From contig JAVKIJ010000004.1 of the NCBI GenBank assembly GCA_031459535.1, positions 79 to 64,078 of the forward strand: a stretch of 64,000 bases of DNA, read 5' to 3'. The translations under genes and the position numbers were made by a program. Positions 29,370-59,717 of the stretch are shown here, in pieces; position 1 is the first letter of the stretch, and each line of letters begins with the position of its first letter. A model generated the notes under the pieces. The model ran no database searches. It was not told the DNA's origin and saw only the letters and a list, made by a program, of their open reading frames with translations. The stretch is from Candidatus Fervidifonticultor quintus. Lineage in GTDB: Bacteria; Sysuimicrobiota; Sysuimicrobiia; Sysuimicrobiales; Humicultoraceae.

Positions 29370-30506
29370 ATGCGCCGTACAGCATGGACGCTGCTGGTAG
29401 CAGTGAGCCTGACGCTCCTGGGATGGCCGGCCTTCCGCGCCGGGGCCCAGGCCGCCATCGAGGACCGTCTGGTGATCATTACCCCGGTGGCCAGGACGGT
29501 TGCGGATCCGACGGTGGCGGCCTTCCGCGAGTTCGCCCGCCGGCAGTTCAACGTCACCGTCAACGTGACGGTCGTCTCGGCCGGCACGCCGGTGGCGTAC
29601 GGCCGCATCAGAGAGTGGGGCGGGCGGCCCGAGGCCGACATCTTCTGGGGCGGCGAGCCGGCGCTGTTCGACGATCTGGCGGAGCGGAAACTGCTAGCCG
29701 TGCTCGACCTGCCCGAAGCCGTCCTCCGGGAGATTCCCGCGTCTCTCGGCACCCCCAAGGCGGTCTTCCTCAAGGACCCAAAGGGCTTCTGGGTCGGATG
29801 TTGCCTCACTCCCTATGGTCTGGTCTACCATCCCCGCCTGCTCAAGCGCCTGGGGATGGAGGCCATCCGCGACTGGGACGACCTGCTCGACTGCCGCCTG
29901 AAGGGGCAGATCGCCCAGGCCACGCCGGACCGGTCGAGCTCCAACCACGCGTCCTACGAGGTCATCCTGCAGATGCTCGGCTGGCAGAAGGGGTGGGAAT
30001 GGGCCCAGCGCCTGGGCGCCAACACAGGCATCTTCGTGGCCCGCAGCCGTGACGTGCCCACGGTGGTGGCCAAGGGCGAGTTTGCCGTCGGGTTCGCCGT
30101 GCCGGCCTACATGGCGTTCGAGGACGTGCTCGACGGGCACGACCTGAAGTACGTCCATCCGACCGCGGCGTTCGTAACCCCCGAACCCCTGGCCATCCTG
30201 GCCGGCTCGCGCAACCCCCGGGCGGCTCGGGCCTTCATCCAGTACGCGCTGAGCGAGGAGGGCCAGCGCGTCATGATGGCCCGGGGGCAGTACGGCATCT
30301 CGCCCAAGTACCGCATGGAGGGACCGAAGGGTTCGCCCGTGGAGCGGATGGCGGAGTTCGCCGGCATTCGGTCGTTCTTCGACCGGCCGGTGCGCAACGT
30401 CTATGACGACAACGTGGCCCAGGGCCGATACAGCCTGGTCAACGACACCTTCCGCAAACTGATCGTCGAACGGCACGCTGAACTGAAGCGGCTACACTGC
30501 CCGTAG
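29370..30506 (+). CDS. ABC transporter substrate-binding protein (family 1, Fe3+/thiamine-type)
   Basis: 378 aa, signal peptide TLLVAVSLTLLGWPAFRAGAQA, ADIFWGGEP and GFAVPAY motifs of the FbpA/AfuA-like family. Confidence 0.85.
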   Translation: MRRTAWTLLVAVSLTLLGWPAFRAGAQAAIEDRLVIITPVARTVADPTVAAFREFARRQFNVTVNVTVVSAGTPVAYGRIREWGGRPEADIFWGGEPALFDDLAERKLLAVLDLPEAVLREIPASLGTPKAVFLKDPKGFWVGCCLTPYGLVYHPRLLKRLGMEAIRDWDDLLDCRLKGQIAQATPDRSSSNHASYEVILQMLGWQKGWEWAQRLGANTGIFVARSRDVPTVVAKGEFAVGFAVPAYMAFEDVLDGHDLKYVHPTAAFVTPEPLAILAGSRNPRAARAFIQYALSEEGQRVMMARGQYGISPKYRMEGPKGSPVERMAEFAGIRSFFDRPVRNVYDDNVAQGRYSLVNDTFRKLIVERHAELKRLHCP

Positions 30507-30561
30507 GCCTCTGCGGATGCTCCGGTTGCCGGAGCCCGCTGGCAGCACGAGGTAGAACGGA

Positions 30562-30600
30562 GGAGGGCATCCCCGGGGTGCCCTCCTCGGCCTCGAGGCC
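30562..30600. terminator. GC-rich hairpin plus adjacent palindrome between convergent genes
   Basis: GGAGGGCA (30562-30569) pairs with TGCCCTCC (30579-30586), followed by the perfect palindrome GGCCTCGAGGCC (30589-30600). No clear T-tract. Confidence 0.35.
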
Positions 30601-30617
30601 TGCGGGGGAGAAACTCT

Positions 30618-31166
30618 TCAGGGAATCGATCGCTCCAGAGGAGAATCTCCGGCGGAGGCCCGGTGGGATTCTGCGTATTGCTGGCGCCTCTTGGCGATGG
30701 TCTTGAGGTGGTAGTCCACATGCTCGACCATATGCTTCACGATCCACTCGAGGGTCTGGGGCCCGTGCTTGCTGTGGATCCCGACGTGCTCCCACGCTCC
30801 GGCCGGGGCCCGGCGGAGGACGTCCGCGGTCGTCTCCCGGACGGCGCGCATCAACGCCAGGGCCTTCTGCAGGGGCACCGCCGAGTAGTCGAAAGCCTTC
30901 GCCCACCCCGCCGCATCCGTCGCCAGGAGCGGGGCGCCCGGCATGGCGAGGACGAAACGGATTCGCGCCGCGACGATCAGGTCGATGTCGGCCACATGCG
31001 CGACGTTCTCCTGGATGCTCCAGTGTTCCGGGCCGGGCTTGAAGCGGAGTTCGTCGTCGGGCACGCCCGCCAGGGCTGACTCCATCAGCCGGGGCCCGTC
31101 CGCGTAGGCCCCGATGAGCGCTGCGATCTCGTGGGTCGTGAGCATCGTCGGGTGGCGCCTCCTCAC
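30618..31166 (-). CDS. DinB-family (DinB_2-like) metal-dependent protein
   Basis: Spaced His residues (WSIQENVAHVAD, HVGIHSKHG, VEHVDYHL) in a four-helix-bundle-like sequence. Start 31166 (GTG) or 31145 (ATG). Confidence 0.75.
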   Translation of the reverse strand: MRRRHPTMLTTHEIAALIGAYADGPRLMESALAGVPDDELRFKPGPEHWSIQENVAHVADIDLIVAARIRFVLAMPGAPLLATDAAGWAKAFDYSAVPLQKALALMRAVRETTADVLRRAPAGAWEHVGIHSKHGPQTLEWIVKHMVEHVDYHLKTIAKRRQQYAESHRASAGDSPLERSIP

Positions 31167-31171
31167 TTGCC

Positions 31172-31879
31172 GTGCGACCTCGGGAGCGCGGTCTGGTCTG
31201 GAACCCGAGGCTGCTCAAGCGACTTGGCATCGATGCCATGCGCGACTGGGACGATCTGCTGGACTGCCGCCTCAAGGGACAGATTGCCCAGGCCACGCCC
31301 GATCGCTCGAGCACCAATCATTCCTCCTACGAGGTGATCCTCCAGCTCCACGGGTGGCAGAAGGGATGGGAGTGGGCTCAGCGTCTGGGTGCCAACACGG
31401 GGATCTTCGTCGCCGGTAGCCGCGACGTCCCCACCGTGGTGGCCAAAGGCGAGTTCGCCGTGGGGTTTGCGGTGCCCGTGACGATGGCCTTCGATGACTT
31501 CAGGTCCGGATTCGACATCAGGTTTATCCATCCCACGGCGGGTTACGTCACGCCGGAGCCCATGGCAGTGCTGGCGGGCGCGCGGAGCCCCCGGGCGGCG
31601 CGCTCCTTCATCCAGTGGGCCCTCAGCGACGAGGGGCAGCGCCTGTTCATGAGCGTGGGGCTGTTCAGCATCATGCCGAAGTACCACATGGAGGGACCAC
31701 CCGGCTCTCCGCTGGACCGCATGGCCCAGTTCTCCGGCGTTCGGTCGTTCTACGACAAGCCGATCCGCAACGTGTACGATGAAGACGTGGCGCAGAAGCG
31801 GTACAGCGAGGTCAATGCTGTCTTTCGCAAGCTGATTTTGGAGCGGCATGACGAACTGAAACGGCTCTACTGCCGATAG
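31172..31879 (+). pseudogene. 5'-truncated paralogue of the substrate-binding protein gene at 29370-30506
   Basis: From about 31192 it aligns gaplessly with codons ~150-378 of the upstream SBP (PRLLKRLG..DWDDLLDCRLKGQIAQATPDRSS...RNVYD..VAQ.RYS). It lacks the signal peptide and the N-terminal ~150 aa. Confidence 0.75.
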
Positions 31880-45890: not shown

Positions 45891-45910
45891 CCCACCAGCC
45901 ACTCCACGAG

Positions 45911-46240
45911 TCATCCGCGCCGCACCGCCGGCGCCTCCCACAACGACGGCAGCCCCTCCAACCGGCGCCAGCCTTCCCCTTCGCGCACGCGCTCGACGCG
46001 GAGTTCCTCGAAGTACTCGTCCAGTACCGCCGCGCGCTCCATCGCCAGCGGCGGGGAGCAGTAGTCTTCCTCCTCCCACACGGCCTCACCCGTCTGAGGG
46101 TCGCGCCGGGCGCCCTCCAGCGCCCGGGTCAGCGAACGGCCGAACGGGCGCATCGGTGTGAACTCGTGGCGGTCGAGCCGCGCGCGCAGTGCGGTCAGCC
46201 GGTCTTCCCGGGCGCGCGCACGCACCAGGTAGTACGCCAT
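45911..46240 (-). CDS. hypothetical protein
   Basis: ATG 46240 preceded by GGGGAGGG. Balanced composition (MAYYLVRARAREDRLTALRARLDRHEF...). The upstream part of the 495-aa track ORF overlaps the MFS gene out of frame and was rejected. Confidence 0.55.
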   Translation of the reverse strand: MAYYLVRARAREDRLTALRARLDRHEFTPMRPFGRSLTRALEGARRDPQTGEAVWEEEDYCSPPLAMERAAVLDEYFEELRVERVREGEGWRRLEGLPSLWEAPAVRRG

Positions 46241-46353
46241 GGCACCCTCCCCTTGTGATGGCGGGACGTTCTGCCCTGTAGCAACCGGAGACTCGGTGCG
46301 GGCATTCCTGCCGGCTGCGGGGTATGGGCGGCGGGTTGCCAACCCTAGAGGAT

Positions 46354-47682: not shown

Positions 47683-47746
47683 ACCGGACTCAACGAGGAA
47701 CGCTTTAGAAACGCCACACCTGGTAAGGGTGCAAGCGGCACCATCT

Positions 47747-47792
47747 GCGCCTGCGCCGCCTGTTGGACTGGCGAGCGCGCCTGCGCCGCCTG
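47747..47792. repeat. two exact 16-nt direct repeats GCGCCTGCGCCGCCTG with a 30-nt period
   Basis: Copies at 47747-47762 and 47777-47792, in the gap between the SARP-like ORF and the MFS operon start. Confidence 0.7.
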
Positions 47793-47835
47793 GTCGCGGT
47801 CCTGACGTCTCGCGAACCCGCCGCCTGGCTCGCTC

Positions 47836-48222
47836 TCAGGCAACTGTACGAGCTCGCACCTCGGGAAGGCTGCGTCGGAGTTCCAGCACGAGCTTGCGCA
47901 GGTTGGTGCGGGCCCGACCTTCGGGCGAGTCTGGCCAGAAGAGCGCCGCGAGCCGCTGCCGCGGCTGTGGGCCCGGATGGAGCATCAGGTAGGCCAGCAG
48001 CGACTGTACCCTGGCCGAAGCGATCGGCACCACCGCCCCGTCGGGATCGGCGAGGCGGAATCCACCCAGCAACTGGATGCTGAACGGGCTGGCGGGCGCG
48101 TCGTCTGACACCGCGGCCTCCGGCCGGCGCGATGGCCTGTAGGCTTCCCCGGCGGTCCGCGCAGTTCCTCCGGGCCACCGTGCTGCCAGGGCTTGTGCGC
48201 TGCTCTGTCTTTCGGCTCGCAT
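47836..48222 (-). CDS. SARP/AfsR-type winged-helix DNA-binding domain only (truncated or stand-alone)
   Basis: IQLLGGFRLADPDG..VPIASARVQSLLAYLMLHP...RQRLAALFWPD....ARTNLRKLVLELRRSL is the N-terminal wHTH of SARP/BTAD regulators. The ORF stops before any BTAD/ATPase region. Confidence 0.45.
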   Translation of the reverse strand: MRAERQSSAQALAARWPGGTARTAGEAYRPSRRPEAAVSDDAPASPFSIQLLGGFRLADPDGAVVPIASARVQSLLAYLMLHPGPQPRQRLAALFWPDSPEGRARTNLRKLVLELRRSLPEVRARTVA

Positions 48223-48255
48223 AATGGGGAACACGGTTCTGTGGAGGGAAGAATC

Positions 48256-49549
48256 ATGCGCACCGCTCCAGTCATCGGCATTCTGTTGGCCTTCGCGTTC
48301 TCCTCGAGCCTGCTGTTGGGTCGGGCTCATGCTCAGTACGAGGATCTGATTGCCCGGGTCAAACCCGGTGTCGTCCTGGTCCAGGCCAGGCACGTGCGCG
48401 GCGCAGAGGGCCACGGGTCCGGATTTGTCTACGACCCTTCCGGGTTCATCCTCACCAACCAACACGTGGTCGCCGGGGCCCGGAGCATCACCGTGGTGCT
48501 CTCCGACGGCCGGAAGCTACCGGCGACCGTCGTGGACTACGTCCGCCGCATGGACTTTGCGTGCCCCCCCGCGGGTGGAGCGATGGATTGACGCGGCGAT
48601 CCTGAAAGTCGAGGCCGACGGCCTGCCCACGGTCCCGCTGGGGGACTCGGCGGCCCTGCGCCAGGGCCAGGAGGTGCTCGTCCTGGGCTACCCGGGCGGC
48701 GTCGGGACTGAAGAAGTGAGCGTCACGCGGGGCATCGTGGGCGCCCTCCGGGCGGGGTGGTTCCAGACCGACGCGACCATGCTCCCGGGCAACAGTGGCG
48801 GACCCGTGGTCGACCGGGACGGCCGGGTCGTCGGCCTCGCCACGTTCGGGACGGGCCAGTTCTTCAAGATCGGCGGCGCCGTGGCGATCAACAGCATCCG
48901 ACGCATGGCCGAGATTGCGCTGACCCAGGGCGCGCCGCGGGCACAAGAATTCCACGTGACCGGGCTCGGATACCTCAGCCCCATCGCCGTGGGGCGGAAG
49001 CGTCTTACCCGGGTGACCTATGACCCGGGCGCGACCGGCGGGCGAGGGGGGATCTACGAGTACACCTCCGAGATCACCCAGGTGGTCAACCTGGCCGGGG
49101 AGGTGCTCTATACCATCAGGGACAGCGACGGCGACGAATACCAGAACTTCCTCGACGCCGAAGGGCTCGTCCGCGTGGCGACCTCGATGAAGTCCTGGAA
49201 GTTCTCCTACCCGAGGCCACGCGTGCTGCTGGCGTTCCCCGTCTGCCCTGGCGTTGGCTGGAAGAACCAGTGGCTCCAGCAGAACCTCTCCAGCGGAGCC
49301 GTCTACCGCGTCGAGGAGAGCTCCAGGATCGAGAGCACGGGTGAATCAGTCTCCGTCCCTGCGGGGAACTTCGCGCAGGCCCTGGTGGAGCGAGGCAGCT
49401 TCGAGTGGGTGGACACCAAGGGGGGCCAGGTCGTCTGGCGGTCCGTCGCGGCCCACTGGTGGGCGGAGGGCGCCGGCGTCGTGCGCTCCACGGAAGAGCG
49501 CGAGGGAACCCGGGAGCGATGGGTGTCTGAGCTCGTGTCCCTGAAGTAG
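48256..49549 (+). pseudogene. trypsin-like (S1C/HtrA-like) serine protease with a non-PDZ C-terminal domain, interrupted by a frameshift
   Basis: GGAGGG then ATG 48256, signal peptide, His region LTNQHVV in frame 1 (stop at 48591). Asp region IDAAILKV and Ser region GNSGGPVV are in frame 2. A C7 run at 48564-48570 lies at the frame junction. Confidence 0.75.
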
Positions 49550-49585
49550 CCAGCGGCACGGGGCAGGAGAAATCGAGAGAGATAG
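49483..49585 (+). repeat. direct repeat copy A (3' end of the protease gene plus ~36 nt downstream)
   Basis: Aligns with 50336-50435. The first 66 nt are 60/66 identical by hand count. The tail shares AAATCGAGAGAG..ATAG, with small indels. Confidence 0.85.
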
Positions 49586-49601
49586 CGTCCTGCTAGGATC
49601 C

Positions 49602-50114
49602 TCAAGTTAGGTGCTCGATCTTGAGACCGAGGAAGCGGCGGAAGCCCCGGTCTTCGGTGAGCAGCACGCGGACGCCGTGTTCCCGGCACAGCGCAGCAAT
49701 TTGGGCGTCGAATGCCAGGTTCCCCGCGGCGCGCGCCTCGTACGCCACCTCCCGGAACAGCGGCCAGTACCGCTCCCCGGGAGACAAGATCTGGAGGCTG
49801 GGACTGGCGACCAGAGCCGCAAGGGCGTCGAGCGCTTCGTTCAGGGGCGAGGGCGGGCGGAGGATCCGCGGGTGGGTGACGACGCGCACGAATTCGCCAA
49901 GACAGACTACCGGTATCGCCCACGTCGAGGGTCCCTCGGCCAGTTCCGCCAGGCGCCGGAGCGCCCGGGTGTGGAGCGGGAGTTCCTCACGGTGGGCGTA
50001 AACCAGAATGTTGGTGTCGACGGCGATCAGCGGCGTTCCTCCATCACTTCCAGGAGCGCGTCGCGGTCGGCGATGTCGGCGGCGGGTGGTCCCTCCCCGC
50101 GGCGGACCGGCCAC
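49602..50114 (-). CDS. vapC: PIN-domain toxin VapC
   Basis: LIAVDTNILVY...GEFVRVVTHP...AFDAQIAALCREHGVRVLLTEDRGF. The true start is probably near 50045 (no canonical start codon found there); the track start at 50114 would overlap vapB by 88 nt. Confidence 0.8.
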   Translation of the reverse strand: MAGPPRGGTTRRRHRRPRRAPGSDGGTPLIAVDTNILVYAHREELPLHTRALRRLAELAEGPSTWAIPVVCLGEFVRVVTHPRILRPPSPLNEALDALAALVASPSLQILSPGERYWPLFREVAYEARAAGNLAFDAQIAALCREHGVRVLLTEDRGFRRFLGLKIEHLT

Positions 50115-50263
50115 CGCAGGCGATAGGGGCGATGACCCCGGCGCCGGGTCAGGAAGAGCCTCAGCGCTTCCTCGAAGAGCGCGGTGAGGGTGCGGCCTTC
50201 CTGAGCCGCCCTCTTCTTGGCCTCGCGCAGGAGGCTGTCATTGAGGTTGAGCGTGGTGCGCAC
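50027..50263 (-). CDS. vapB: VapB-type antitoxin
   Basis: 78 aa. MRTTLNLNDSLLREAKKRAAQEGRTLTALFEEALRLFL is a typical type II antitoxin N-terminus. GTG start, located directly upstream of vapC. Confidence 0.8.
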   Translation of the reverse strand: MRTTLNLNDSLLREAKKRAAQEGRTLTALFEEALRLFLTRRRGHRPYRLRWPVRRGEGPPAADIADRDALLEVMEERR

Positions 50264-50298
50264 CGGTGCGTACCTTCGGGCTCATGGGGTCACATACA

Positions 50299-50327
50299 AA
50301 CATACTCATTCCCTCATATATCTGCAA
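50299..50327 (-). promoter_or_regulatory. candidate vapBC promoter (TTGCAG-17-TATGTT) in an AT-rich patch
   Basis: Reverse strand reads TTGCAG, a 17-nt spacer, then TATGTT, ending 36 nt upstream of the vapB GTG. Local composition is much more AT-rich than the surroundings. Confidence 0.35.
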
Positions 50328-50335
50328 GCCATCGC

Positions 50336-50435
50336 GCGATCCACGGAAGAGCGCGACGGAACCCGGGAGCGAGGGGTCTCTGAGCTCGTCGCCCTGAAGT
50401 ACGCGGCGGCCCGGGCAGAAATCGAGAGAGAATAG
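50336..50435 (+). repeat. direct repeat copy B (orphan copy of the protease 3' end)
   Basis: Encodes RSTEERDGTRERGVSELVALK versus RSTEEREGTRERWVSELVSLK in copy A. The stop TAG is changed to TAC. Confidence 0.85.
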
Positions 50436-50522
50436 AGAGAATGGGAGGAGGTTGGCCCCGGATCACAGAATCTTTGGCTAACGTGTATTAGCGAGCATCA
50501 CATCCCTCGCCGTTGGTGGGAA

Positions 50523-51068
50523 GTGAGCCGGTCTCATTCCTGCAGCCGTCCTATCCCGGTCGACCCCGGCGGCGCCGCCTGGTTCGTCGTCCAGACGAAG
50601 CCCCGCGCCGAAGACCAGGCGCAGCAGTTCCTCCATCGGCGCGCTGTCCATACGTTCCTGCCCCGGCTGCTGGTGCGCAGGCGCCACGGCTCTCGGCGGT
50701 GGCAGGCCCTCGAGCCGCTGTTTCCGGGCTATCTGTTCTGCCACTTCGCGCCCGTTCCAGAAACAGTTGCACGGGTGCAGTGGACGCCCGGCGTGCGCCG
50801 TCTGCTGGGCGATGACGACGGCCCGATTCCCATTGACCGCGAGATCATCGACTATCTCAAGGCGCGGCAAGCGATAGACGGCTACATTGCCGCCGGCCGG
50901 CCGCTGGCGCCCGGCGATCGGGTGCGGTTCGTCGGGGGTCCGTTCGCGTTGCTGGAAGGCATCATCGAGCGGCCGACGACGCGCGCCGAACGGGTGCGGG
51001 TGCTGCTCTCACTGATGGGCACCTCGGTGGTCGTGGAGGTTGACGAGGCGGTCCTGGAACGGTGCTGA
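50523..51068 (+). CDS. NusG-paralogue transcription antiterminator (RfaH/LoaP/UpxY-like)
   Basis: NGN-like WFVVQTKPRAE...EPLFPGYLF and KOW-like GDRVRFVGGPFALLEGIIE. First gene of the polysaccharide locus. Confidence 0.8.
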   Translation: MSRSHSCSRPIPVDPGGAAWFVVQTKPRAEDQAQQFLHRRAVHTFLPRLLVRRRHGSRRWQALEPLFPGYLFCHFAPVPETVARVQWTPGVRRLLGDDDGPIPIDREIIDYLKARQAIDGYIAAGRPLAPGDRVRFVGGPFALLEGIIERPTTRAERVRVLLSLMGTSVVVEVDEAVLERC

Positions 51069-51207
51069 TGGGGGGCAGCGCCGGCCGGTAGCCTGCCTCG
51101 CCGGACATGCAGTCGAGCTCGGCACAATTCAGGGGTGACCGGGGGTCAGGGGTGCGTGCCCCAGCGGCGGAGCCATGCCCGGGCCCCGAGCATGCTGGAG
51201 GCGGGCG

Positions 51208-51438
51208 ATGAGCATAACTCCCCCGCGCGCAGGCCGCATCGTCCCCGGGTCGGTCACGGTGCCGGGCGGCGAGCAGGCCCTGCGTCCGTGCGAGGCCAAG
51301 CTGCTGGCGTACATTCGCAACCACTGGGCCCTGGACTTCGGCACGCGGGAGGTCAGGTTGGTCATTGAATACCAGGACGGCGTCCCGGTGCTGATCCGCG
51401 TGACGGGGAACATCGTCCGGGAGGAGAAGTTGAGATAA
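51208..51438 (+). CDS. small hypothetical protein (DUF2292/YezD-like?)
   Basis: ATG 51208 is 6 nt after GGAGG. C-terminal VRLVIEYQDGVPVLIRVTGNIVREEKL resembles YezD-like small proteins. Tentative. Confidence 0.4.
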   Translation: MSITPPRAGRIVPGSVTVPGGEQALRPCEAKLLAYIRNHWALDFGTREVRLVIEYQDGVPVLIRVTGNIVREEKLR

Positions 51439-51534
51439 GGAAGCGTGCACCCGCGCGGGCCGTACCGCGTCGGGACGAGGCACTGCACGGCGTAACCGAA
51501 TAACGACGGGACCGGGTTCCTGACCCGACGAAGC

Positions 51535-51604
51535 GGGAGGGGGCTGATCGTTGTTTCGCGCGCCGCATCCGGTGCGCAGACGTTCGGCCCCCTCCCGGTT
51601 TTCT
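51535..51604 (+). terminator. candidate intrinsic terminator/attenuator in the leader of the wza-like gene
   Basis: GGGAGGGGGC (51535-51544) pairs with GCCCCCTCCC (51587-51596). The interior can pair further (e.g. GCGCGCC/GGTGCGC). It is followed by GGTTTTCT. Confidence 0.45.
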
Positions 51605-51665
51605 CGAGACCGCAGTGCGCAGACGACGCCACGACAGCGGCAGACCCTCAGGGAGGTTACCCGCG

Positions 51666-52976
51666 ATGATGCGGCATGCGATTGACACGTTTCCGTCCGC
51701 CCGGCGGGCCTGGCCCGGGGCGACCCGGGGCGGCACCGCAATCGTGCGTAGCGCGGCCGTGCTGGTCGCCCTGCTGCTGGTCGGCCTGCTGCCCGGTGGC
51801 GCCCCCGCGCGGGCGCAGACCGGAGCACCGCCTCTCTCGGGCCTGTCAACTCCCGCCGCCACTCACGCGACCTACGTGCTCGGTCCCGAAGACGTGCTGG
51901 AGATCTCGGTGTGGGGATACCCCGACCTTACGCGCGTCGTCGCCGTGCTGCCCGACGGCCGCATCAGCGTGCCCCTGGTCGGCGCCGTGATGGCCGCTGG
52001 CCAGACCGTCGAGCAGCTCACCCGGGCGCTGGTGCGGGGCTTCGCGCGGTACATCCGCGAGCCGCAGGTCACGGTCATCGTCAAGGAGTTCCGCAAGGTG
52101 CGTGCCTCGGTGCTGGGCCAGGTGGCCAAGCCCGGGACGTACGCCCTGCCTCCCGGCGCACGGCTGCTCGACCTGATCTCGGCCGCGGGCGGCCTCACCG
52201 AGGTGGCGTCGTTGGGCGACGCCCAGCTGCTGCGCGGCAGGGGGCCGGCGCTGGTGGTCGACCTCGACCGCGTGTTGGCCGGCGACCCCGAGGCCAACGT
52301 GGAGCTGACGGGCGGCGAGACGCTGGTGGTCCGAGAAGACCTGGTCAACATCGTCAACGTCGCCGGCGAGGTGGTCAAGCCCGGGCGCTACCGCCTCAAG
52401 GGCGAGATGCGCGTGCTCGACGTCCTGCTGCTGGCGGGCGGCCTCACGGAGCGGGCTTCGGTCACCGCGGCGCGGCTAGTCCGGGGCGGCGAGGCCCACG
52501 ACTTGGCCCTCGACGCCCTGCTGCTGCGCCAGGACATGAGCCACAACGTGCGCCTGCGCCCCGGCGACACGATACTCGTGCCCGAAGAGACCAACAACAA
52601 GGTCTACGTGCTGGGCGACGTCAACAGCCCCGGCGTCTTCCCCCTCAAGGGCGAGGTCACGCTGTTGCAGGCCGTGGCCATGGCGGGTGGTCCGGTGCAG
52701 CGTGGACCGGCCACGGCCCGCACGATTCACATCGTGCGCCGGGGTGCGGTCGAACGCGCGGTGGTGGCGGGCGCGGCGAGCGGCATTCGGGTCGAGGCGA
52801 TCCCGGGCGGCCGGGCGCTGATCAGCGCCGACCTGCAGAACTTGTTGCGCAACAGCGCGACCCGTGATATCAGCGTGCAGCCCGGCGACGTGATCGTCGT
52901 GCCGCAGTCCGGGCTCACGGGCCTGCAGGTCGCCCTCAACATCCTGGCCGGGCTCGTCTGGCCGTTCCGCTGGTAG
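51666..52976 (+). CDS. wza: polysaccharide export protein (Wza/OPX-like, Poly_export + SLBB repeats)
   Basis: GGGAGG 9 nt upstream of ATG 51666. YVLGPEDVLEISVWGYPDL...LPDGRISVPLVGAVMAAGQTVEQL, and repeated V.V.GEV..PG.Y SLBB-like units. Confidence 0.85.
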   Translation: MMRHAIDTFPSARRAWPGATRGGTAIVRSAAVLVALLLVGLLPGGAPARAQTGAPPLSGLSTPAATHATYVLGPEDVLEISVWGYPDLTRVVAVLPDGRISVPLVGAVMAAGQTVEQLTRALVRGFARYIREPQVTVIVKEFRKVRASVLGQVAKPGTYALPPGARLLDLISAAGGLTEVASLGDAQLLRGRGPALVVDLDRVLAGDPEANVELTGGETLVVREDLVNIVNVAGEVVKPGRYRLKGEMRVLDVLLLAGGLTERASVTAARLVRGGEAHDLALDALLLRQDMSHNVRLRPGDTILVPEETNNKVYVLGDVNSPGVFPLKGEVTLLQAVAMAGGPVQRGPATARTIHIVRRGAVERAVVAGAASGIRVEAIPGGRALISADLQNLLRNSATRDISVQPGDVIVVPQSGLTGLQVALNILAGLVWPFRW

Positions 52977-53006
52977 GATGGTTGAGGCGGCACGAGGTTA
53001 GTGACG

Positions 53007-53357
53007 ATGCCGATCTACGAGTACCGTTGCGGCGACTGTCGGGCGCGCTTTTCGGTCTTCTTCCTGCCGCCCGAGCGACCCGACCCGCGCTGCCGGCGCT
53101 GCGGCAGCACCAACGCCGTCCGCCTCATGTCCCGCTTCTCGATGGTGCGCTCCGACGAGGCGCGTCTGGACGCCCTGGCTGACGACCCCGACCTCGCCAG
53201 TGTGGACGAGTCGGACCCGCGCAGCGTCGCGCGCTGGATGAAGCGCATGGGACGCGAGATGGGCGAAGACCTGGGCCCCGGGTTCGACGAGGCCCTGGAG
53301 ACCATGGAGCAGGGCGGCGGTGAGGGCGAGGTAGCGGACGCAGAGCCGCCCGACTGA
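53007..53357 (+). CDS. FmdB-family zinc-ribbon protein
   Basis: MPIYEYRCGDCRARF...CRRCGS (CxxC-x-CxxC) followed by an acidic tail. Confidence 0.8.
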   Translation: MPIYEYRCGDCRARFSVFFLPPERPDPRCRRCGSTNAVRLMSRFSMVRSDEARLDALADDPDLASVDESDPRSVARWMKRMGREMGEDLGPGFDEALETMEQGGGEGEVADAEPPD

Positions 53358-53398
53358 GTGGTGCAGCCTGGTGGGTGCTGCGGCGTGCGGGCTCTTTC

Positions 53399-53944
53399 CT
53401 ATGGAAGCAGGTCGCTGACGGCGATCCGAACCGTCGGGGCGGCCAGCGGCGCGATGCTGTCTCCTGCGGCCAGACGCATCGTGGCTCGGTAGGCAGATTC
53501 GTGGGGTTCCCGGTAGATCTCCAGGACGCGGTCAACAAGGTTGAGGAGCCAATATTCGGGGATGCGCGCGCGGGCGTACATCGCCTGCTTGCGGGTGCGG
53601 TCAAAGTCCAGCGTGGTGTCGGCGACTTCCATCACGAGGACGGCCGTGGCAGGATGGCGATCGGCGCGAGTTCTCGGGGGACCCGCGACCACGGCCAGGT
53701 CGGGCTCAGGCTCGGACTCCGCCCCAAGCGCCAGGGGCAGTTGGACGCGGACGCTGTACTCCGGAGCCAGCGCGCCGAGCGCGCTCTGCGCCAGTTCGAC
53801 GGCGGCCGCGTGCAGCGCGCTCTGGGGTGTCATCTCGACGATCTCTCCGCAAACGAGCTGGACGCGGGCTCCCGGAGGAAAGGCGCGGGCGGCAACCAGC
53901 CGCTCGTACTCCTCCCGGGTCCACAGCTTTGTGCGCACACCCAT
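53399..53944 (-). CDS. Uma2-family (DUF820) putative endonuclease
   Basis: WTREEYERLVAARAF...PDLAVV...VMEVADTTLDFDRTRKQAMYARARIPEYWLLNL matches the Uma2 PD-(D/E)xK pattern. GGGAGAGG SD. Confidence 0.85.
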   Translation of the reverse strand: MGVRTKLWTREEYERLVAARAFPPGARVQLVCGEIVEMTPQSALHAAAVELAQSALGALAPEYSVRVQLPLALGAESEPEPDLAVVAGPPRTRADRHPATAVLVMEVADTTLDFDRTRKQAMYARARIPEYWLLNLVDRVLEIYREPHESAYRATMRLAAGDSIAPLAAPTVRIAVSDLLP

Positions 53945-55424
53945 GGCGCCTCTCCCTGACGCCTATCATACCCGAAACACACTCGCGTGGGCCACCGCGA
54001 CCGTCGCCGCCGGCCTGGCGCTGGGCCTGTTCGCCGGCGCGGCCGCGCACTCAAGCGCCGGCGCACACCCCGGCGCCCCCGCGCCCCGTCCCAACGCCGT
54101 GCTCGCCGCCGATCACTGGGCCTACCCGGCCCTCTACAGGCTGGCCGCCGCCGGGCTGGCACCTCTGTGGGCGGCCTCGGCCCGACCGCTGCCTCGGCTC
54201 GAGGTCGCGCGCATGGTGGCCGAAGCGCTCGAGCGCGCGGCGCAGTCCCAAACTGCTGGCGCGCCACGCCGGGACTTCCTGCAGGCCGACCTGGCCGCGC
54301 TGCGCGACGAGTTCGCCGCCGAGCTGCGCCTGCTCGAGGAGGCGCGCGCCGGCCGGCAGCCCTCCGGTGCGGTGGGCGCGGCTCTGGGCGCCGCCGGCAC
54401 GGTACGCGCGGCCGGCGGCACCGCCCCGCACTTCGTGCGACACGAGAGCAGCGGGTTCGATCTCGACCGCGCCTACCTTGGTGCGCGCGCTGGTGACGTC
54501 GCCGTCCAGGCGGGCCGCGATCTCCTCTGGTGGGGGCCGGCCTTCCGAGGCGCGTTCCTGCTCTCCGACAACGCCGGGCCGCTCGACTACCTGAGCCTGT
54601 CGGCGACCTCCGGCCGGTTCCGCATGGTCAAGCTGGTCGCGCCGCTGGCCGACCCCGAACGGTACCTCTACGGACTGCGCGTGGACTGGCAGGCGCGCGA
54701 CGACCTGCGGATCGGCTTCGGCGAGGTGATGGCGGCCTCCGGCGGGCCCTCGGTGCTCTATGCGCTGAACGTCGTTCCAGGCATCGCCTATGCCATCGCC
54801 CACTATGTGCGCACCGGCTCCAACGACAACTACAGCTTCGCCCTCGACGCCGACTGGCGACCGCGGCCCGGGACGCTGTTCTACGGCGAGCTGTACGTGG
54901 ACGACCTGGCCGTCTTCGACCCCTACAACCCCTTCCCGCACCGCATCGCGGGTACCGTCGGCCTGTACCTGGCCGACCCGTTCGGCGACGGCCGCACCAG
55001 CCTGCGCTTCGAACACAGCCGGGCGAGCAACTGGATCTACGCGGCGCCCGCGCCGGGAGCGCACACCCTCCGCGGGGCCCGGGCGGTCGGCCACTGGTGC
55101 GCGCCCGACTGCGAGTTGTGGTCGGCGGCGATGATCCGGCAGCTGTCCCCGCGCTCCGGCGTGCTGGTCGGTTACGACCTGATCCGCAAGGGCGAGGGCC
55201 GGCTGGGTGAGACCTGGACTGACCCCGACGACGCGTGGCGGCGCTACTACCTGTCCGGTGTCGTCGAGACCACGCACGCCCTGCGCGCTGCGGCCTGGTG
55301 GTCCGCGGGCGACCTGCGCGCGACCCTGACCGCGGTCTGGAGTACCGCGTCCAACGCGGGGCACGTCGCCCGCGCGACGCGTCAGGGTTGGTTCGTTCTG
55401 TGGGAGGCGACCTATGGGTTCTGA
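53943..55424 (+). CDS. Wzi-like capsule-assembly / outer-membrane beta-barrel protein (putative)
   Basis: Signal peptide TLAWATATVAAGLALGLFAGAAAHS. LLWWGPAFRGAFLLSDNAGPLDYLSL resembles the Wzi family. Alternating beta-strand pattern and terminal aromatic (YGF). The start shares CCATGG with the divergent Uma2 start. Confidence 0.5.
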   Translation: MAPLPDAYHTRNTLAWATATVAAGLALGLFAGAAAHSSAGAHPGAPAPRPNAVLAADHWAYPALYRLAAAGLAPLWAASARPLPRLEVARMVAEALERAAQSQTAGAPRRDFLQADLAALRDEFAAELRLLEEARAGRQPSGAVGAALGAAGTVRAAGGTAPHFVRHESSGFDLDRAYLGARAGDVAVQAGRDLLWWGPAFRGAFLLSDNAGPLDYLSLSATSGRFRMVKLVAPLADPERYLYGLRVDWQARDDLRIGFGEVMAASGGPSVLYALNVVPGIAYAIAHYVRTGSNDNYSFALDADWRPRPGTLFYGELYVDDLAVFDPYNPFPHRIAGTVGLYLADPFGDGRTSLRFEHSRASNWIYAAPAPGAHTLRGARAVGHWCAPDCELWSAAMIRQLSPRSGVLVGYDLIRKGEGRLGETWTDPDDAWRRYYLSGVVETTHALRAAAWWSAGDLRATLTAVWSTASNAGHVARATRQGWFVLWEATYGF

Positions 55425-57633
55425 CCGCACCGACGTCGAGCGGCTCGGCGGGCCACCGGCCCCCCAGCCCGAGGCCGAGCCCGGCCTGCGCGACTACCTG
55501 GACGTGCTGCGCCGGCGCTGGTGGCTGCTGGTGGTCACCACCGGCGTGGCGTTCTCGGTGGCGCTGGGCCTGAGCCTGGGTATGGCGCCGGTCTACCGCG
55601 GCCAGGCCACCGTGGTGGTCGACCGCAGCGGCTCGTCGTTCGCCATGACCGCCGACCTGACGGGCATCAGTCAGCAGGCCTTCGTGGACACCCTGGCCGA
55701 GCTGGTCAAGAGCCGGGCCGTGGCCGAGCAGGCCCTCGAGCGTCTGGGTGTCCCCGCGGAGGCCCGGCCCGCCGTGCTGCGCACGCTCCAGGCCGGGCTG
55801 CGGGTGCGCCGCGTGCGCAACGCCGACCTCATCGTCATCGAGGCCGAAGGCGCCACGCCCCAGGACGCGGCCCTCTACACCAACGCCGTGGCCGAGGCCC
55901 TGCTCGACTGGCACGTGGAATCGCGCCGCAAGCAGGCCGCAGCCGGCCGACAGTTCATCGAGGGCCAGGTCGAGGCCGTGGGCCGCGAGCTGCGCGCCGC
56001 TGAGGACGCGCTGGCCCGCTACAAGGTAGGGGCCGGGCAGGTCTCGCTGTCGGAGCAGAGCACGCTGGCGGTGACCAAGCTGGCCGAGTTCGAAGCGCAG
56101 CGGCGCGCGGTGGCTACCGAGCGCCGGGGGGTCGAAGCCAGTCTGCGCGAAGCCCGCGCGGCGCTGGTGCGTCAGGCGCCCACCGTGCCCGCGTCGTTTG
56201 TCGAGGGTGAAGACCCCGTGGTCGCCCAGGTCCGCGGCGACCTGGCGAGGCTCGAGCTGGAGCTGGTGGGCCTGCAGCGCCAGTTCACCGACCGGCACCC
56301 GCAGGTGCTCGCGACCCGGGCGCGCATCGAAGAGGCCAAGGCCCGCCTGCGCCGGCAGGCCGGCCGCACGCTGCTCTCGCAGGAGTTCGCGGCCAATCCG
56401 CTGCGCTCCGACCTGGCCGGCCAGATCATCAAACTCGAGGTCGAGCGCCAGGCGCTGCAGGCGCGCGAGGCCGCGCTGGCCGCGGTGGTGGGCCAGTACG
56501 CCCGCGACGTCCGCGACCTGCCGCCCCGCGAGGTGGCCCTGGCGCGCCTGACCCGCGACCTCAAGGTGGCCGAGGAGACCTACCTCCTGCTCTCGCAGAA
56601 ACTGCAAGAAGCCCGCATTGCCGAGTCGTCCGTGGTGGGCGACCTGCGCATCGTTGACCGCGCGGCGCCACCCGAGGTGCCGGTGCGGCCGCGGCCCGTG
56701 CGCAACATGCTGTTCGGCGCGCTGCTGGGTTTGGTCGTGGGGCTGGGAGGCGCGTTCCTGGCCGAGGCGCTCGACGACACGTTCCGCACGCCCGACGAGG
56801 CGGCGCAGTTGCTGGGCCTACCGCTGCTGGCCGCGATCCCGCGCACGAACCCACCTCCGGCCGAGGCGTCAACCAATAACGCCCGTCCGGGCCGCGGCAA
56901 CGGCCGGCGAACCAGGGGCGGCGGTCAGGCCGCGGCGATGCCGCTCATGACCGCCGAGCACCGCCGCTCGCCGTTCGCCGAGGCCTTCCGCCACCTGCGT
57001 ACCAACCTCGACTACCTGAGCCCCGACCGGCCGCTGCGGACGGTGCTCGTCACCAGCACCGGCCCCGAGGAAGGCAAGAGCACCGTCACCGCCAACCTGG
57101 CTGCGGCTCTGGCGCTGGCTGGCCGCCGCGTGTGGGTGGTCGAGGCCGACCTGCGCAAGCCCGCGATGTCCTGGGCGTTCCAGCCTGCGGGTACCCGCGG
57201 GCTCTCCGACCTGCTGATCGTAGGGGCCGACCCCGCCGCCGCACTCGCCCCCACGCAGATCGAGAACCTGTCGTTCGTCCCCGCCGGCACCCCGCCGCCC
57301 GACCCCGCGGAGCTGCTCGGCAGCCAGCGCATGCGGGCGTTCCTGGCCGCCGCCCGCGAGCAGGCCGACGCCGTGATCGTGGATGCGACTCCCGTGCTGC
57401 CGGTGACCGACGCCGTGGCCCTGGCCCCGCACGTGGACGGGGTGCTGCTGGTGGTCGACCTCGCTCGCACGCCCCGCGACGCCGCCCGCCGCGCCGCCGC
57501 GCAGTTGCGGGCCGTGGGCGCGAGGGTGGCGGGGGTGGTCGTGAACAACGTGCCGGCCAACGGGCGGGGGTATTACTACTACCGCTACTACCCGTACGCG
57601 CGCGAAGAAGCGGTGGCCGGTGCGGACGGTTGA
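55414..57633 (+). CDS. wzc: polysaccharide co-polymerase with C-terminal BY-kinase (Wzc/GumC-like, PCP-2a)
   Basis: Wzz-like N-terminus, long coiled-coil region, second TM, Walker A STGPEEGKST, A' VWVVEADLRKP, B VIVDATPVLPVTD, and a C-terminal Tyr cluster GRGYYYYRYYPY. Confidence 0.9.
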   Translation: MGSDRTDVERLGGPPAPQPEAEPGLRDYLDVLRRRWWLLVVTTGVAFSVALGLSLGMAPVYRGQATVVVDRSGSSFAMTADLTGISQQAFVDTLAELVKSRAVAEQALERLGVPAEARPAVLRTLQAGLRVRRVRNADLIVIEAEGATPQDAALYTNAVAEALLDWHVESRRKQAAAGRQFIEGQVEAVGRELRAAEDALARYKVGAGQVSLSEQSTLAVTKLAEFEAQRRAVATERRGVEASLREARAALVRQAPTVPASFVEGEDPVVAQVRGDLARLELELVGLQRQFTDRHPQVLATRARIEEAKARLRRQAGRTLLSQEFAANPLRSDLAGQIIKLEVERQALQAREAALAAVVGQYARDVRDLPPREVALARLTRDLKVAEETYLLLSQKLQEARIAESSVVGDLRIVDRAAPPEVPVRPRPVRNMLFGALLGLVVGLGGAFLAEALDDTFRTPDEAAQLLGLPLLAAIPRTNPPPAEASTNNARPGRGNGRRTRGGGQAAAMPLMTAEHRRSPFAEAFRHLRTNLDYLSPDRPLRTVLVTSTGPEEGKSTVTANLAAALALAGRRVWVVEADLRKPAMSWAFQPAGTRGLSDLLIVGADPAAALAPTQIENLSFVPAGTPPPDPAELLGSQRMRAFLAAAREQADAVIVDATPVLPVTDAVALAPHVDGVLLVVDLARTPRDAARRAAAQLRAVGARVAGVVVNNVPANGRGYYYYRYYPYAREEAVAGADG

Positions 57634-57639
57634 GGTGCG

Positions 57640-57887
57640 ATGGTTACCCTGCCGCTGACCCGTTCAGCTGGTCACCGAGGGAGGCCGGAGGGTCAACCTT
57701 CCCAGGCCCTGCGCGAGCTGTGGGCGTTCCGCCACACCGTGCTGGCCTTCGCCGAGCGGGACGTGCGGCTCAAGTACAAGCAGACGGTCCTCGGCGTGGC
57801 CTGGGCCGTTATCCAACCGCTGGCCTTCATGGACATCTCCTTGCTGACGTTCGGACGGCTGGCCAAGCTGCCGGGAGGCGGGGTGCC
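57640..57887 (+). pseudogene. 5' stub of an ABC-2 (Wzm-type) permease gene
   Basis: Coupled to wzc (TGA 57631, GAGG, ATG 57640). ALRELWAFRHTVLAFAERDVRLKYKQTVLGVAWAVIQPLAFM matches the N-terminus of the intact wzm at 58860. Homology ends at 57887. Confidence 0.75.
57703..57887 (+). repeat. direct repeat copy 1 (wzm 5' region)
   Basis: Gapless alignment to 58938-59122, 151/185 identical by hand count. Confidence 0.85.
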
Positions 57888-57957: not shown

Positions 57958-58302
57958 CTACAGGAAATCCACCGCGTAGGCGGGAAGCCCTGCCGGTTGC
58001 TCCGCCGCGTAGGCCGCCAGGGCCTCGGCGATCGGCGCGAACCGGTCCGCAGGCAGTGTGTAGGGCACAATGAGCACGCCGAAGTGGGGACGCCGGTCGT
58101 TGAAAAACTGAATCGTGAGGCGGATGAAATCGTCACGATTTCGCGTGACAAGACACCGGCCGTCCCGGGCGGCGCGTTCGAGTTGCTCGTGGTCGGAAAG
58201 TCCCTCCGCCCCGACCTCATGCGCACTGACGGCATCCGCGCCGTGAGCGCGCAGCAGCTCGGCTATCCGCTGGCTGAGGTCTTCGTCGAGGTAGTATTTC
58301 AA
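57958..58302 (-). CDS. DUF5615-family (PIN-like/Mut7-C-like) putative toxin
   Basis: [28 protein letters not shown]...LVTRNRDDF is typical of DUF5615. The TTG start overlaps the antitoxin stop (TTGA). Confidence 0.8.
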
Positions 58303-58718
58303 CGGCCTTCGGCGGCCAGCGAGGGGTGGCGTTCGGCGAGTCCTTGCGGGCTCCAGGAGTCGTTGCGGGCGATCAGCCGGTCGATCTCCTCCTTATACGC
58401 GGCGTAGTAGCCGAACGCCGCCCGCAGGTGGGCTTCCGAGAGCCAGTGGTAGGTCTGGCGCAGGCGGCCGCGGTCCCGGTCGAGGCTTTTGTAGGTGGCG
58501 ATGATCTCCCAGACATCGAGGCCGGTGCCGGCCACGCGGGCCCGCCGCCCGAAGGGTCCGTCGGCAAAGAAAATCCCGGGGCACCGCCGCATCTTGACAG
58601 CCTCCACGAGCAGCTCGTTGGCGACGGAAGAGAAGTCGCGCCCCGTCGCCTCGGCCAGGGATTGGATCTCCCTGGCGACGTCGCCGGGAATGCGCAGGCT
58701 CTTCTGCACTGTGGGCAT
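58299..58718 (-). CDS. DUF433-domain putative antitoxin with an RHH-like N-terminus
   Basis: ATG 58718 after [33 protein letters not shown] is the DUF433 core. The N-terminal [31 protein letters not shown] is ribbon-helix-helix-like. Confidence 0.8.
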
Positions 58719-58753
58719 CGATGTCGCTCCTTTTGTGCGATGTCCGCAATTGT

Positions 58754-58782
58754 AGAATACGGTGGAACGCATTGTAAGTCAA
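58754..58782 (-). promoter_or_regulatory. TA-module promoter (TTGACT-17-TATTCT) with flanking AACGCAT direct repeats
   Basis: Reverse strand reads TTGACT (58782-58777), a 17-nt spacer, then TATTCT (58759-58754). AACGCAT occurs at 58766-58772 and 58781-58787 (+ strand), overlapping the -35. Confidence 0.45.
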
Positions 58783-58859
58783 CGCATGGGATTGTCTCTC
58801 GAACGATTACTCGAAAATATTGGCGTAACAATATCAGCCCTGCATGAGGTGGAAGCGCG

Positions 58860-59717
58860 GTGGGCGCCGACGGAACCGCCCTGCAGGTAACCAAACTCGA
58901 ACTCGTCATCGAGGGCGGCCCACGTCCCCGCCTGGGGCAAGCCCTGCGGGAACTGTGGGCGTTCCGCCACACCGTCCTGGCCTTCGCCGAGCGCGACGTG
59001 CGCGTGAAGTACAAGCAGACCGTCCTGGGCGTGCTGTGGGCCATTCTCCAACCCCTGGCTTTCATGGTGATCTTCTCCGTGGCCTTTGGGCGCCTGGCCA
59101 AAGTGCCGGGCGGCGGTGCCCCCTACGCGGCGTTCTCGCTGTCCGTCCTGGTCCCCTGGACGTTCCTGCAAACGGCGGTGACCTTCGGCGCCAACTCCCT
59201 GCTGATGGATTCCGCCATCATCCGGAAGGTTTACCTTCCGCGGGAGGTGCCGGTCCTGGGCGCGGTCGCCCACGCGGGGGTGGACCTCGCCATTGGCGTC
59301 GGTCTCTTCGCCCTCCTGGCGCCGGTGGTCGGGGCGCGCTTCTCGCCCACCTGGCTGCTGGTCCCGATCCTGGCCGTGCTGCTAGGGCTGCTGGCGGTCG
59401 CGGTGGCTCTGCCGCTGGCCGCCCTCAACGTCTACTACCGGGACTTCCGCTACGCGCTGCCGTTTGCGCTGCAACTGTGGCTGTTTGCCTCGCCGGTCGC
59501 CTACCCGCTGTCCGTCGTGCCCGCGCCGTGGCGCGAGCTCTACGTGACGCTGAACCCGGCCGCCGGCCTCCTGGACGCCTTCCGGCGGGTGCTGGCGATG
59601 GGGGCGTGGCCCGACCCGGGCCTGCTGGCGGTCAGCCTGGCGGGCACGGCGGTGCTTCTGTGGGCCGGCTACTGGATCTTCAAGGGCCTCGAGCCGAACT
59701 TCGCCGACGTGGTGTAG
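58860..59717 (+). CDS. wzm: ABC-2 type polysaccharide export permease
   Basis: 285 aa, 6 TM, conserved N-terminal ELW.FR.....A.RD...KYKQTVLG..W....P motif of Wzm/TagG/KpsM-like permeases. Confidence 0.88.
   Translation: MGADGTALQVTKLELVIEGGPRPRLGQALRELWAFRHTVLAFAERDVRVKYKQTVLGVLWAILQPLAFMVIFSVAFGRLAKVPGGGAPYAAFSLSVLVPWTFLQTAVTFGANSLLMDSAIIRKVYLPREVPVLGAVAHAGVDLAIGVGLFALLAPVVGARFSPTWLLVPILAVLLGLLAVAVALPLAALNVYYRDFRYALPFALQLWLFASPVAYPLSVVPAPWRELYVTLNPAAGLLDAFRRVLAMGAWPDPGLLAVSLAGTAVLLWAGYWIFKGLEPNFADVV
58938..59122 (+). repeat. direct repeat copy 2 (inside the intact wzm)
   Basis: See copy 1. 16 of the 27 differing codons are synonymous by hand count. Confidence 0.85.

Follow-up and report, generated by a model that had tools for sequence, protein, structure and literature searches.

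Background

Integrating phages and integrative and conjugative elements (ICEs), such as phage 21 and e14 in icd and SXT in prfC, bring with them a replacement end of the gene that they enter, and the polysaccharide (O-antigen and capsule) loci of bacteria are mosaics with gene remnants at their module boundaries. Insertion with long target duplication has been described for restriction-modification (RM) modules (Nobusato et al. 2000, Gene 259:99; Furuta, Abe & Kobayashi 2010, PMC2853133); the duplications are variable and imperfect, from ~45 to ~420 bp, they arise without mobility genes, and their mechanism is unexplained (PMC2853133; reviewed in PMC3874152). Displacement of the kind attributed to homology-facilitated illegitimate recombination (HFIR) leaves orphaned gene ends beside immunity genes at type VI secretion system (T6SS) and Rhs loci (Kirchberger et al. 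2017, PMC5361080), and for HFIR itself PMC5361080 and PMC2884548 cite de Vries & Wackernagel 2002, Prudhomme et al. 2002 and Meier & Wackernagel 2003. In a 64,000-nucleotide stretch of the Candidatus Fervidifonticultor quintus genome (contig JAVKIJ010000004.1, positions 79 to 64,078; hereafter the window) there are three sites at which small antisense genes, two of them toxin-antitoxin (TA) or TA-like pairs, lie between a gene and a diverged partial copy of that gene.

In this paper we compare these three sites with the corresponding loci of related genomes. Site 1 holds a dinB-like gene between two genes for substrate-binding proteins (SBP1 and SBP2), site 2 a vapBC operon between a protease gene and a copy of its 3' end, and site 3 a DUF5615-DUF433 pair between a relic of wzm and a complete wzm. 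A preliminary description of the window had read the three as one recurring architecture. Comparison with relatives indicates that they are probably three kinds of illegitimate-recombination scar, namely a deletion, a one-sided allele replacement and a TA insertion flanked by a long repeat, in a recombination-prone and TA-rich stretch, and not the product of one mechanism.

Materials and methods

The nearest relatives of the window (G+C content 69%) are metagenome-assembled genomes (MAGs) of Candidatus Fervidifonticultor from hot springs (Ca. Sysuimicrobiota; Armatimonadota in older records), and all compared sequences are metagenome assemblies. L012 denotes Ca. F. octavus and L008 Ca. F. tertius; the other L-numbers are related contigs, of which L005 and L031 both belong to MAG bin GCA_031459465.1. 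Direct repeats in the window were sought by self-blastn and by local alignment of flank against flank, and all fetched loci of the relatives were screened for direct repeats. Protein domains were assigned with Pfam, and RNA genes with ARAGORN and Rfam. Coordinates of the features are collected in Table 1.

Results

Repeats in the window

Three strong direct repeats, and no more, were found by self-blastn in the whole window, all of them where the preliminary description had placed them: 29817-30501 against 31190-31874 at site 1 (687 bp, 76.4%), 49479-49582 against 50332-50431 at site 2 (104 bp, 84.6%) and 57703-57881 against 58938-59116 at site 3 (179 bp, 82.7%). The remaining self-matches were at most 112 bp long and much weaker (best E ~1e-7 vs <=1e-25 for the three pairs), and flank-against-flank alignment gave scores of 556, 127 and 203 at sites 1, 2 and 3 where the top of 100 shuffles reached ~30. 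The arrangement of gene, antisense cargo and partial copy, with long and diverged duplicated segments, thus stands as it was first reported, and so does the lack of a recombinase or inverted repeat: Pfam returned no recombinase domain in the cargo of the three sites, and the inverted matches there were weak (12-31 nt), with none bracketing the cargo, so that a transposon, insertion sequence or miniature inverted-repeat element does not describe them. Protein-level conservation of the copies, which had also been claimed, is borne out at site 1 (690 nt, in frame and ungapped; ratio of nonsynonymous to synonymous divergence, dN/dS, 0.19; dS 0.90) and at site 3 (60 codons; dN/dS 0.16, dS 0.60); at site 2 it is not demonstrable (23 codons with 8 substitutions; dN/dS 0.63, dS 0.17).

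Two further candidates were rejected. The template and variable repeats of a diversity-generating retroelement do not fit, since the mismatches, mostly G/C transversions, are not specific to adenines and no reverse transcriptase is present; an element with integrase and att sites, or transposon ends, does not fit either, as there was no integrase domain in the open reading frames (ORFs) tested and no att-like repeat.

Site 1

Site 1 is a deletion of 1.45-2.07 kb between two SBP genes that are old paralogues and already had dinB between them. The order shared by five related contigs, namely L001, L002, L057, L058 and L059, is SBP1(+), DinB(-) and GntR(+), followed in some by SIS(+), then a complete SBP2(+) of 378 aa and the ATPase and permease genes; the DinB_2 gene of L057-L059 has the equivalent place and the same orientation. 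The window is collinear with these relatives save for a single gap. In L001, window 29139-31182 corresponds to 6313-8378 and 31189-37955 to 10447-17183; in L057, window 24600-31164 corresponds to 40-6607 and 31190-41875 to 8058-18747. What is missing is L001 8379-10446 (2068 bp) or L057 6608-8057 (1450 bp), a segment that holds gntR, the SIS gene of those relatives that have one, and ~447 bp from the 5' end of SBP2.

The partial copy is therefore a recent remnant of SBP2 and shares only 75% aa identity with SBP1; its dN/dS against the SBP2 of L001 is 0.054. The SBP homologues form two clades, 78-96% and ~70% identical to the full copy of the window, and both occur on single contigs; SBP1/SBP2 homology ends at the stop codon. 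Because the relatives share the gene order, the remnant is 96% identical to the orthologous SBP2, and the dS of ~1.0 between SBP1 and SBP2 is the same within L001, dinB is an old resident between old paralogues, and the proposal that it had been inserted is contradicted by all five contigs. Ancestrally SBP1 was followed by dinB(-), gntR (±SIS), SBP2 and the ATPase and permease genes, and one deletion took gntR and the 5' 447 bp of SBP2, leaving the in-frame 3' remnant beside dinB.

In the relatives a palindrome, TATACTGGTATAGACCAGTATA, lies upstream of gntR (L001 ~8385-8410), at the left edge of the segment that the window has lost. It is likely the GntR operator.

Site 3

At site 3 two wzm lineages meet, an A-type represented by L031 and a B-type represented by L005. 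The relic is 88.7% identical to the wzm of L031 and 77.9% to the window's own wzm, and the diagnostic sites place it with L031 by 35:9 (35 of 48 sites); for the full wzm of the window they split 7:40, as in L005, and this copy is 93.2% identical to that of L005 and 90.1% to that of L006. By sliding identity and diagnostic sites the sequence is L005-like (~92%) from 58385 or earlier, across wzm and on into the 5' half of wzt, and past ~60314-60319 it is L031-like at 88-92% through the C-terminal half of wzt and the methyltransferase gene. L031 also has the best protein match to the relic, and its cluster (NusG, Wza, Wzc, two sugar genes, full wzm, wzt, methyltransferase, glycosyltransferases) is orthologous to that of the window. 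Site 3 is accordingly a mosaic junction, with a B-type tract within an A-type locus.

The cargo belongs with the B-type tract. The join between DUF433 and wzm is common to the window and L005, in which the TA-like pair, 95% identical at the aa level, also stands beside wzm. In L034 and L043 the DUF433-DUF5615 pair occupies another slot at 76% nt identity, with homology confined to the two ORFs, and it is conserved as a unit in L005, L034, L043 and L056, across two different slots. The DUF433 assignment has a Pfam score of 20.6 bits, under the cut-off of 23.6. Beside DUF433, at 58749-58798, a promoter scan found three promoter-like sites where 0.3 were expected. The Logan contig L056 covers 57879-59006 at 99.5% identity and represents the same allele as the window.

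One junction of the tract lies in homologous sequence, in wzt at ~60316, and the left join, at 57887-57958, is between the wzm relic and the 3' tail of the TA pair. From this geometry we infer HFIR as the mechanism. A segment from a diverged lineage, carrying DUF5615-DUF433, the adjoining B-type wzm and the first half of wzt, would have been imported; its right crossover would have been homologous, within wzt, and its left end, which had no homologue in the recipient because the donor has the TA pair upstream of wzm, would have been joined illegitimately inside the resident A-type wzm, stranding the 5' relic.

Two other origins were considered for this site and rejected: in-situ duplication of the target, as the identity matrix shows the two copies to be non-sister sequences, and Campbell-type integration of a circle, as the B-type tract continues 2.4 kb past the repeat.

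In tertius (L008 12278-12703) another PIN-domain gene, split into two ORFs, lies antisense directly after the Wzc stop, at the spot that the wzm relic and DUF5615-DUF433 occupy in the window. The variable half of the polysaccharide-export (EPS) cluster of L006 has truncated epimerase (5752-6057, 101 aa) and RmlD (8770-9663, 113 aa) calls, which are more gene remnants at module boundaries.

Site 2

Site 2 lies in a strain-specific island of 5.6 kb that directly follows a tRNA-Pro gene and contains an MNT-HepT TA pair (~44975-45890), a major facilitator superfamily gene (-), a frameshifted protease gene, vapBC and the protease 3' copy (Pfam). The tRNA-Pro gene has 100% identical copies in L012 and L001, followed there by NusG or other genes without the island; octavus has ~200 bp between tRNA-Pro and NusG. 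No integrase was found in the island, and the 3' end of tRNA-Pro is not repeated within 45.0-51.2 kb.

The protease gene had been taken as intact. It carries a +1 frameshift in a run of C at ~48563-48572, with one base more than L004 and L003, and since the independent Logan assembly L032 has the same frameshift this is probably real and not a sequencing error. L032 covers protease to vapC with three single-nucleotide differences (SNPs) and represents the same allele as the window. To judge from sequence, the cargo has the gene layout of a type II VapBC: its two genes overlap, and the Pfam scores are 64 bits for PIN and 31.7 for VapB_antitoxin. The region upstream of vapB (50264-50331) has a lower G+C of 59% (0.59, measured over 50200-50499), and a sigma-70 scan found no site for vapBC.

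Between the repeats the foreign unit measures 749 bp, with 19 nt after the vapC stop and 68 nt upstream of vapB, and similarity between the copies extends 33 nt past the stop codon of the protease gene. The closest protease orthologues (72-76% identity) cannot polarise the repeats because they stand in unrelated contexts and have 8-9 extra C-terminal residues. On these observations a minimal vapBC cassette would have come to lie between imperfect repeats of the protease 3' end in one of two ways, the one-sided recombination (HFIR) proposed for site 3 or an insertion with long target duplication, and both are possible.

Old paralogues trimmed by deletion

If all three sites resembled site 1, an ancestor with two full copies of the protease gene and of wzm flanking the cargo would have lost part of one copy by deletion. 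Site 1 matches this history exactly; bin GCA_031459465.1 has both an A-type (L031) and a B-type (L005) wzm cluster, and truncated genes occur in the EPS loci of the relatives. At site 2, however, the similarity beyond the stop and a dS of only 0.17 are unlike old paralogues, and no second protease copy was found in any relative's locus. Nor was a tandem wzm pair found in the relatives, the A and B types being on separate contigs, and one deletion at site 3 could not also yield a wzt with an A-type 3' half followed by A-type downstream genes. We consider such a common history quite improbable.

Chimeric assembly

The junctions might also be chimeric joins of co-occurring strains made during metagenome assembly. 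The source is a MAG contig, the contigs of relatives repeatedly break around Wzc and the TA pair, and short Logan contigs terminate within the repeats. Switching between strains at shared k-mers, however, yields chimeric single genes and not the order of stub, cargo and full gene; the protease-vapC segment is spanned independently by L032 with its three SNPs, 57879-59006 is spanned by L056, the TA-wzm join recurs in L005, and at site 1 the alignment to each of three independent contigs shows just a plain collinear gap. Artefact is thus a very improbable source of the pattern.

Repeat-flanked TA cassettes in relatives

The screen of the relatives' loci added two cases. In L033 two 104-bp copies (8766-8869 and 9744-9846) of a noncoding element that precedes Wza, 92% identical to one another, flank an antisense PIN-RHH (vapBC; RHH, ribbon-helix-helix) pair; in L034 and L043 this element is single-copy and lacks vapBC. 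The RHH-PIN pair of L031 is flanked by 42-bp repeats, 90% identical, that match the 3' end of the adjacent gene, and it is co-oriented with that gene. Since the L033 repeats are a noncoding element, the duplicated sequence need not be coding, and since the L031 cargo is co-oriented, the antisense rule is not general. An orientation bias had been suspected from the window; three antisense cargoes of three have a probability of 1/8 under a coin-flip null, which is not significant.

Four of seven TA or TA-like cassettes therefore have flanking direct repeats of 42-222 bp (site 2, 104 bp; site 3, 179-222 bp; L033, 104 bp; L031, 42 bp), and three do not (MNT-HepT of the window, DUF433-DUF5615 of L034 and the PIN gene of L008). 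The cassettes are minimal operons, with 3' tails of 19-70 nt and promoter sides of 68-180 nt.

These cassettes raise the question of a dedicated form of TA mobility, by which insertion with long target duplication would have made sites 2 and 3, L033 and L031, the repeats being target sequence that has since diverged. The proportion of repeat-flanked cassettes, all of them without a mobility gene or inverted repeats, speaks for it, as do the small size of the inserted units, the RM precedent of repeats from ~45 to ~420 bp at 93-100% identity, and the L033 repeats, whose identity to one another (92%) exceeds their identity to the single copy of L034 (87%). The left flanks of L033 and L034 are non-homologous, however, so that this empty site is only half comparable. 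Further, the copies at site 3 are not sisters and the foreign tract reaches 2.4 kb past the TA pair, site 1 is a deletion, three cassettes have no repeats, and the repeats have diverged by 8-17%, which is much for insertions that are strain-specific. As a common source of the four cases this mobility is unlikely.

Uma2 and mosaicism of the export cluster

An antisense Uma2 gene (PD-(D/E)XK-like) in the left half of the EPS cluster had been counted as a fourth insert, one without a flanking repeat. The lack of a flanking repeat is confirmed by flank-against-flank alignment; the gene is no insert and is ancestral in its slot, with an 87% orthologue at the same place in octavus (L012), in L033 a homologue (80%) that likewise follows the Zn-ribbon gene, and in tertius (L008) a 27-aa relic, the rest being deleted. 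The slot after the Zn-ribbon gene holds Uma2 in the window, L012 and L033 (8100-8732) and the DUF433-DUF5615 pair in L034 (4141-4898) and L043; the two are alternative antisense occupants of it.

The block from NusG to Wzc (50548-57633) has 86.6-88.9% nt identity to L008 and L012. Its dS against octavus and tertius is 0.25-0.43, and that of the neighbouring core genes at 32-44.5 kb is 0.6-0.94, two to three times higher, which suggests that the block has been swapped between species or lineages more recently than the core genome. The idea that sites 2 and 3 are the two ends of one imported block (50332-57887) was not supported, as homology to the relatives covers 50548-57633, with both limits just inside the relics. 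A protease gene adjoining NusG was found in no relative.

Other features

The noncoding element upstream of Wza (window ~51494-51544, L034 5794-5888, L008 6862-6895) is conserved in many relatives and has the hairpin core CGGGTC-CCT-GACCCG; it matches no Rfam family at the gathering threshold, and for the export operon it may serve as a leader or as a regulatory RNA. Between NusG and Wza, at 51175-51438, there is a small ORF of 87 aa without a Pfam match, which is conserved and occurs also in L033 at 7473-7712. ARAGORN called a 95-nt tRNA-Ala inside the wzi coding region (54994-55088, minus strand), which Rfam does not support and which is probably a false positive. Downstream of site 1 a 3.4-kb segment (37955-41331), which holds two genes of permease type and one for an SBP, on the minus strand, is missing in L001 and present in the closer relative L057, and is an indel polymorphism among the relatives. 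The Rfam scan had the tRNA as its sole match, no relative above 73% identity came out of the metagenome scan, and exact-protein look-ups for the ATPase and VapB gave no match.

Table 1. Features of the three sites and their surroundings (feature; window coordinates; strand; evidence and remarks)
SBP1, intact Fe3+-type ABC substrate-binding protein gene, 378 aa	29370..30506	+	ORF; Pfam SBP_bac_1/8/11; orthologues 93-94% in L001, L057
DinB_2 family gene, ancestral resident	30618..31166	-	Pfam; 89% orthologue at same place and orientation in L001/L002
Deletion junction	31182..31189		Relatives hold gntR (±SIS) and first ~447 bp of SBP2 here
SBP2 3' remnant, 229 codons and stop codon, no internal stop	31190..31879	+	96.1% aa to L001 SBP2, dN/dS 0.054
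tRNA-Pro(GGG), left edge of strain-specific island	44898..44974	+	ARAGORN, Rfam
Strain-specific island, 5.6 kb	44993..50547		Missing in octavus (L012) and tertius (L008); blastn synteny breaks
Trypsin-like serine protease pseudogene	48193..49549	+	Two overlapping ORFs, both Pfam Trypsin_2
Direct repeat a, site 2	49479..49582	+	Last 71 nt of protease gene and 33 nt downstream
vapBC, predicted type II TA operon	49602..50263	-	VapC PIN 49602-50114 (or CTG start at 50030); VapB/RHH 50027-50263
Direct repeat b, site 2, decayed protease 3'-end copy	50332..50431	+	Stop codon lost; conserved Trp -> Gly
Left half of EPS cluster: NusG-like, small ORF, Wza, Zn-ribbon, Uma2(-), Wzi, Wzc	50548..57633	+	Pfam
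Uma2 (PD-(D/E)XK-like) gene	53399..53944	-	Pfam; slot after Zn-ribbon gene
Internal relic of A-type wzm allele	57666..57887	+	First ~40 nt lost, 1-nt deletion, ends at ~codon 87
DUF5615 (PIN-like) and DUF433 TA-like pair	57958..58718	-	DUF5615 57958-58302, DUF433 58299-58718; Pfam
Intact B-type wzm (ABC-2 permease)	58860..59717	+	93.8% nt to L005 over 58385-59716, ~75% to L031
Chimeric wzt	59721..60977	+	Nucleotide-binding half B-type or mixed, C-terminal half A-type; change-point ~60314-60319

Discussion

A uniform-looking pattern of gene, antisense cargo and partial copy can conceal unrelated histories, and comparison with relatives separates them fast. The reading that we hold to be likely, of three different scars in a stretch prone to recombination and rich in TA genes, leaves part of each explanation first offered for the window. 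Import by one-sided recombination with addictive cargo kept is well supported at site 3, where the alleles are of different lineages and B-type sequence lies within an A-type locus; it fails at site 1, a deletion, and for Uma2, which is ancestral. An insertion that copies a long target fails at site 1 for the same reason and at site 3, where the copies are not sisters, and is still possible for site 2, L033 and L031. The scars may persist because the TA cargo is addictive, so that its loss by recombination between the flanking repeats would be counter-selected, and an antisense cassette with its own promoter may disturb the operon least.

Several points weigh against the reading of three scars. 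Retention through addiction and antisense orientation is something that we infer. HFIR is known from experiments only in naturally competent model species and usually deletes recipient DNA, unlike the case here, which is read from a genome whose host is not established as competent. Neither an empty site nor another allele of site 2 was found among the relatives, and independent assemblies cover neither the right-hand junction of site 2 nor the left-hand one of site 3. Microhomology at the illegitimate junctions is unconvincing, and at the join of site 3 L005 begins only at the equivalent of 58385. Lastly, since L005 and L031 share one MAG bin, the A and B types of wzm may be paralogues in one genome, in which case a deletion history for site 3 would be conceivable.

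With its mechanism as proposed, site 3 would be a clean natural footprint of HFIR, in which a TA module entered an exopolysaccharide export operon of an uncultured hot-spring lineage. The repeat-flanked cassettes hint that the signature known from RM modules may reach classical TA systems, which would support the preferential survival of addictive modules at recombination scars. It is doubtful, though worth stating, that the classical type II TA cassettes of this thermophilic candidate phylum (VapBC, RHH-PIN and DUF433-DUF5615) spread autonomously by insertion with long target duplication and leave imperfect repeats of 40-220 bp of coding or noncoding target; if they did, a process so far documented for RM modules only would extend to TA, with four of the seven sampled cassettes as examples. 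Current understanding is not overturned by these findings.

Among known systems, integrating elements such as phage 21, e14 and SXT resemble the sites in that an intact gene and a diverged partial copy surround foreign DNA, but they have an integrase and an identical att core, and the inserts here, of 0.75-1 kb, have neither. The mosaic polysaccharide loci share with the export cluster a conserved export half and a variable half, blocks of differing ancestry and truncated genes at the joins; TA cassettes at block boundaries are not, as far as is generally known, a standard feature of them.

Site 3 is like HFIR in that the imported tract ends in a homologous wzt on one side and in a non-homologous join on the other, carries a heterologous TA pair between, and has a phylogenetic affinity that differs from both flanks. 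In T6SS effector-immunity arrays and in the displacement of Rhs C-terminal ends, as these are outlined in PMC5361080 and Jackson et al. 2009, a module is likewise anchored in a conserved gene and the displaced end stays as a downstream orphan beside a protective gene, retention being put down in those outlines to selection on that immunity or antitoxin-like gene. Those arrays, however, are co-oriented and consist of polymorphic toxins with immunity genes, whereas here housekeeping and export genes are displaced and a stand-alone antisense TA operon is retained.

The signature was at first thought not to have been described as a class. The RM insertions with long target duplication (PMC2853133) and the T6SS and Rhs displacements (PMC5361080) are precedents for it, and our literature search found no account of classical TA cassettes that bear it. 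As with the RM insertions, an addictive two-gene module without transposase or integrase is flanked by long, variable and imperfect direct repeats of local sequence, which often reach into the 3' end of the gene next to them; the cases with this resemblance are site 2, L033 and L031. The features by which the Kobayashi group recognises such insertions, repeats >30 bp, an insert <20 kb and no mobility gene, are present at sites 2 and 3 and in L033 and L031. Unlike the RM insertions, the cargo is type II TA (VapBC and RHH-PIN, with DUF5615/DUF433 at site 3), the repeats are 85-92% identical where those of RM modules are mostly 93-100%, site 2 has no comparable empty site, the repeats of site 3 are not sisters, and site 1 is a deletion. 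The TA cases described here are further instances of an already described signature, in TA rather than in RM modules.

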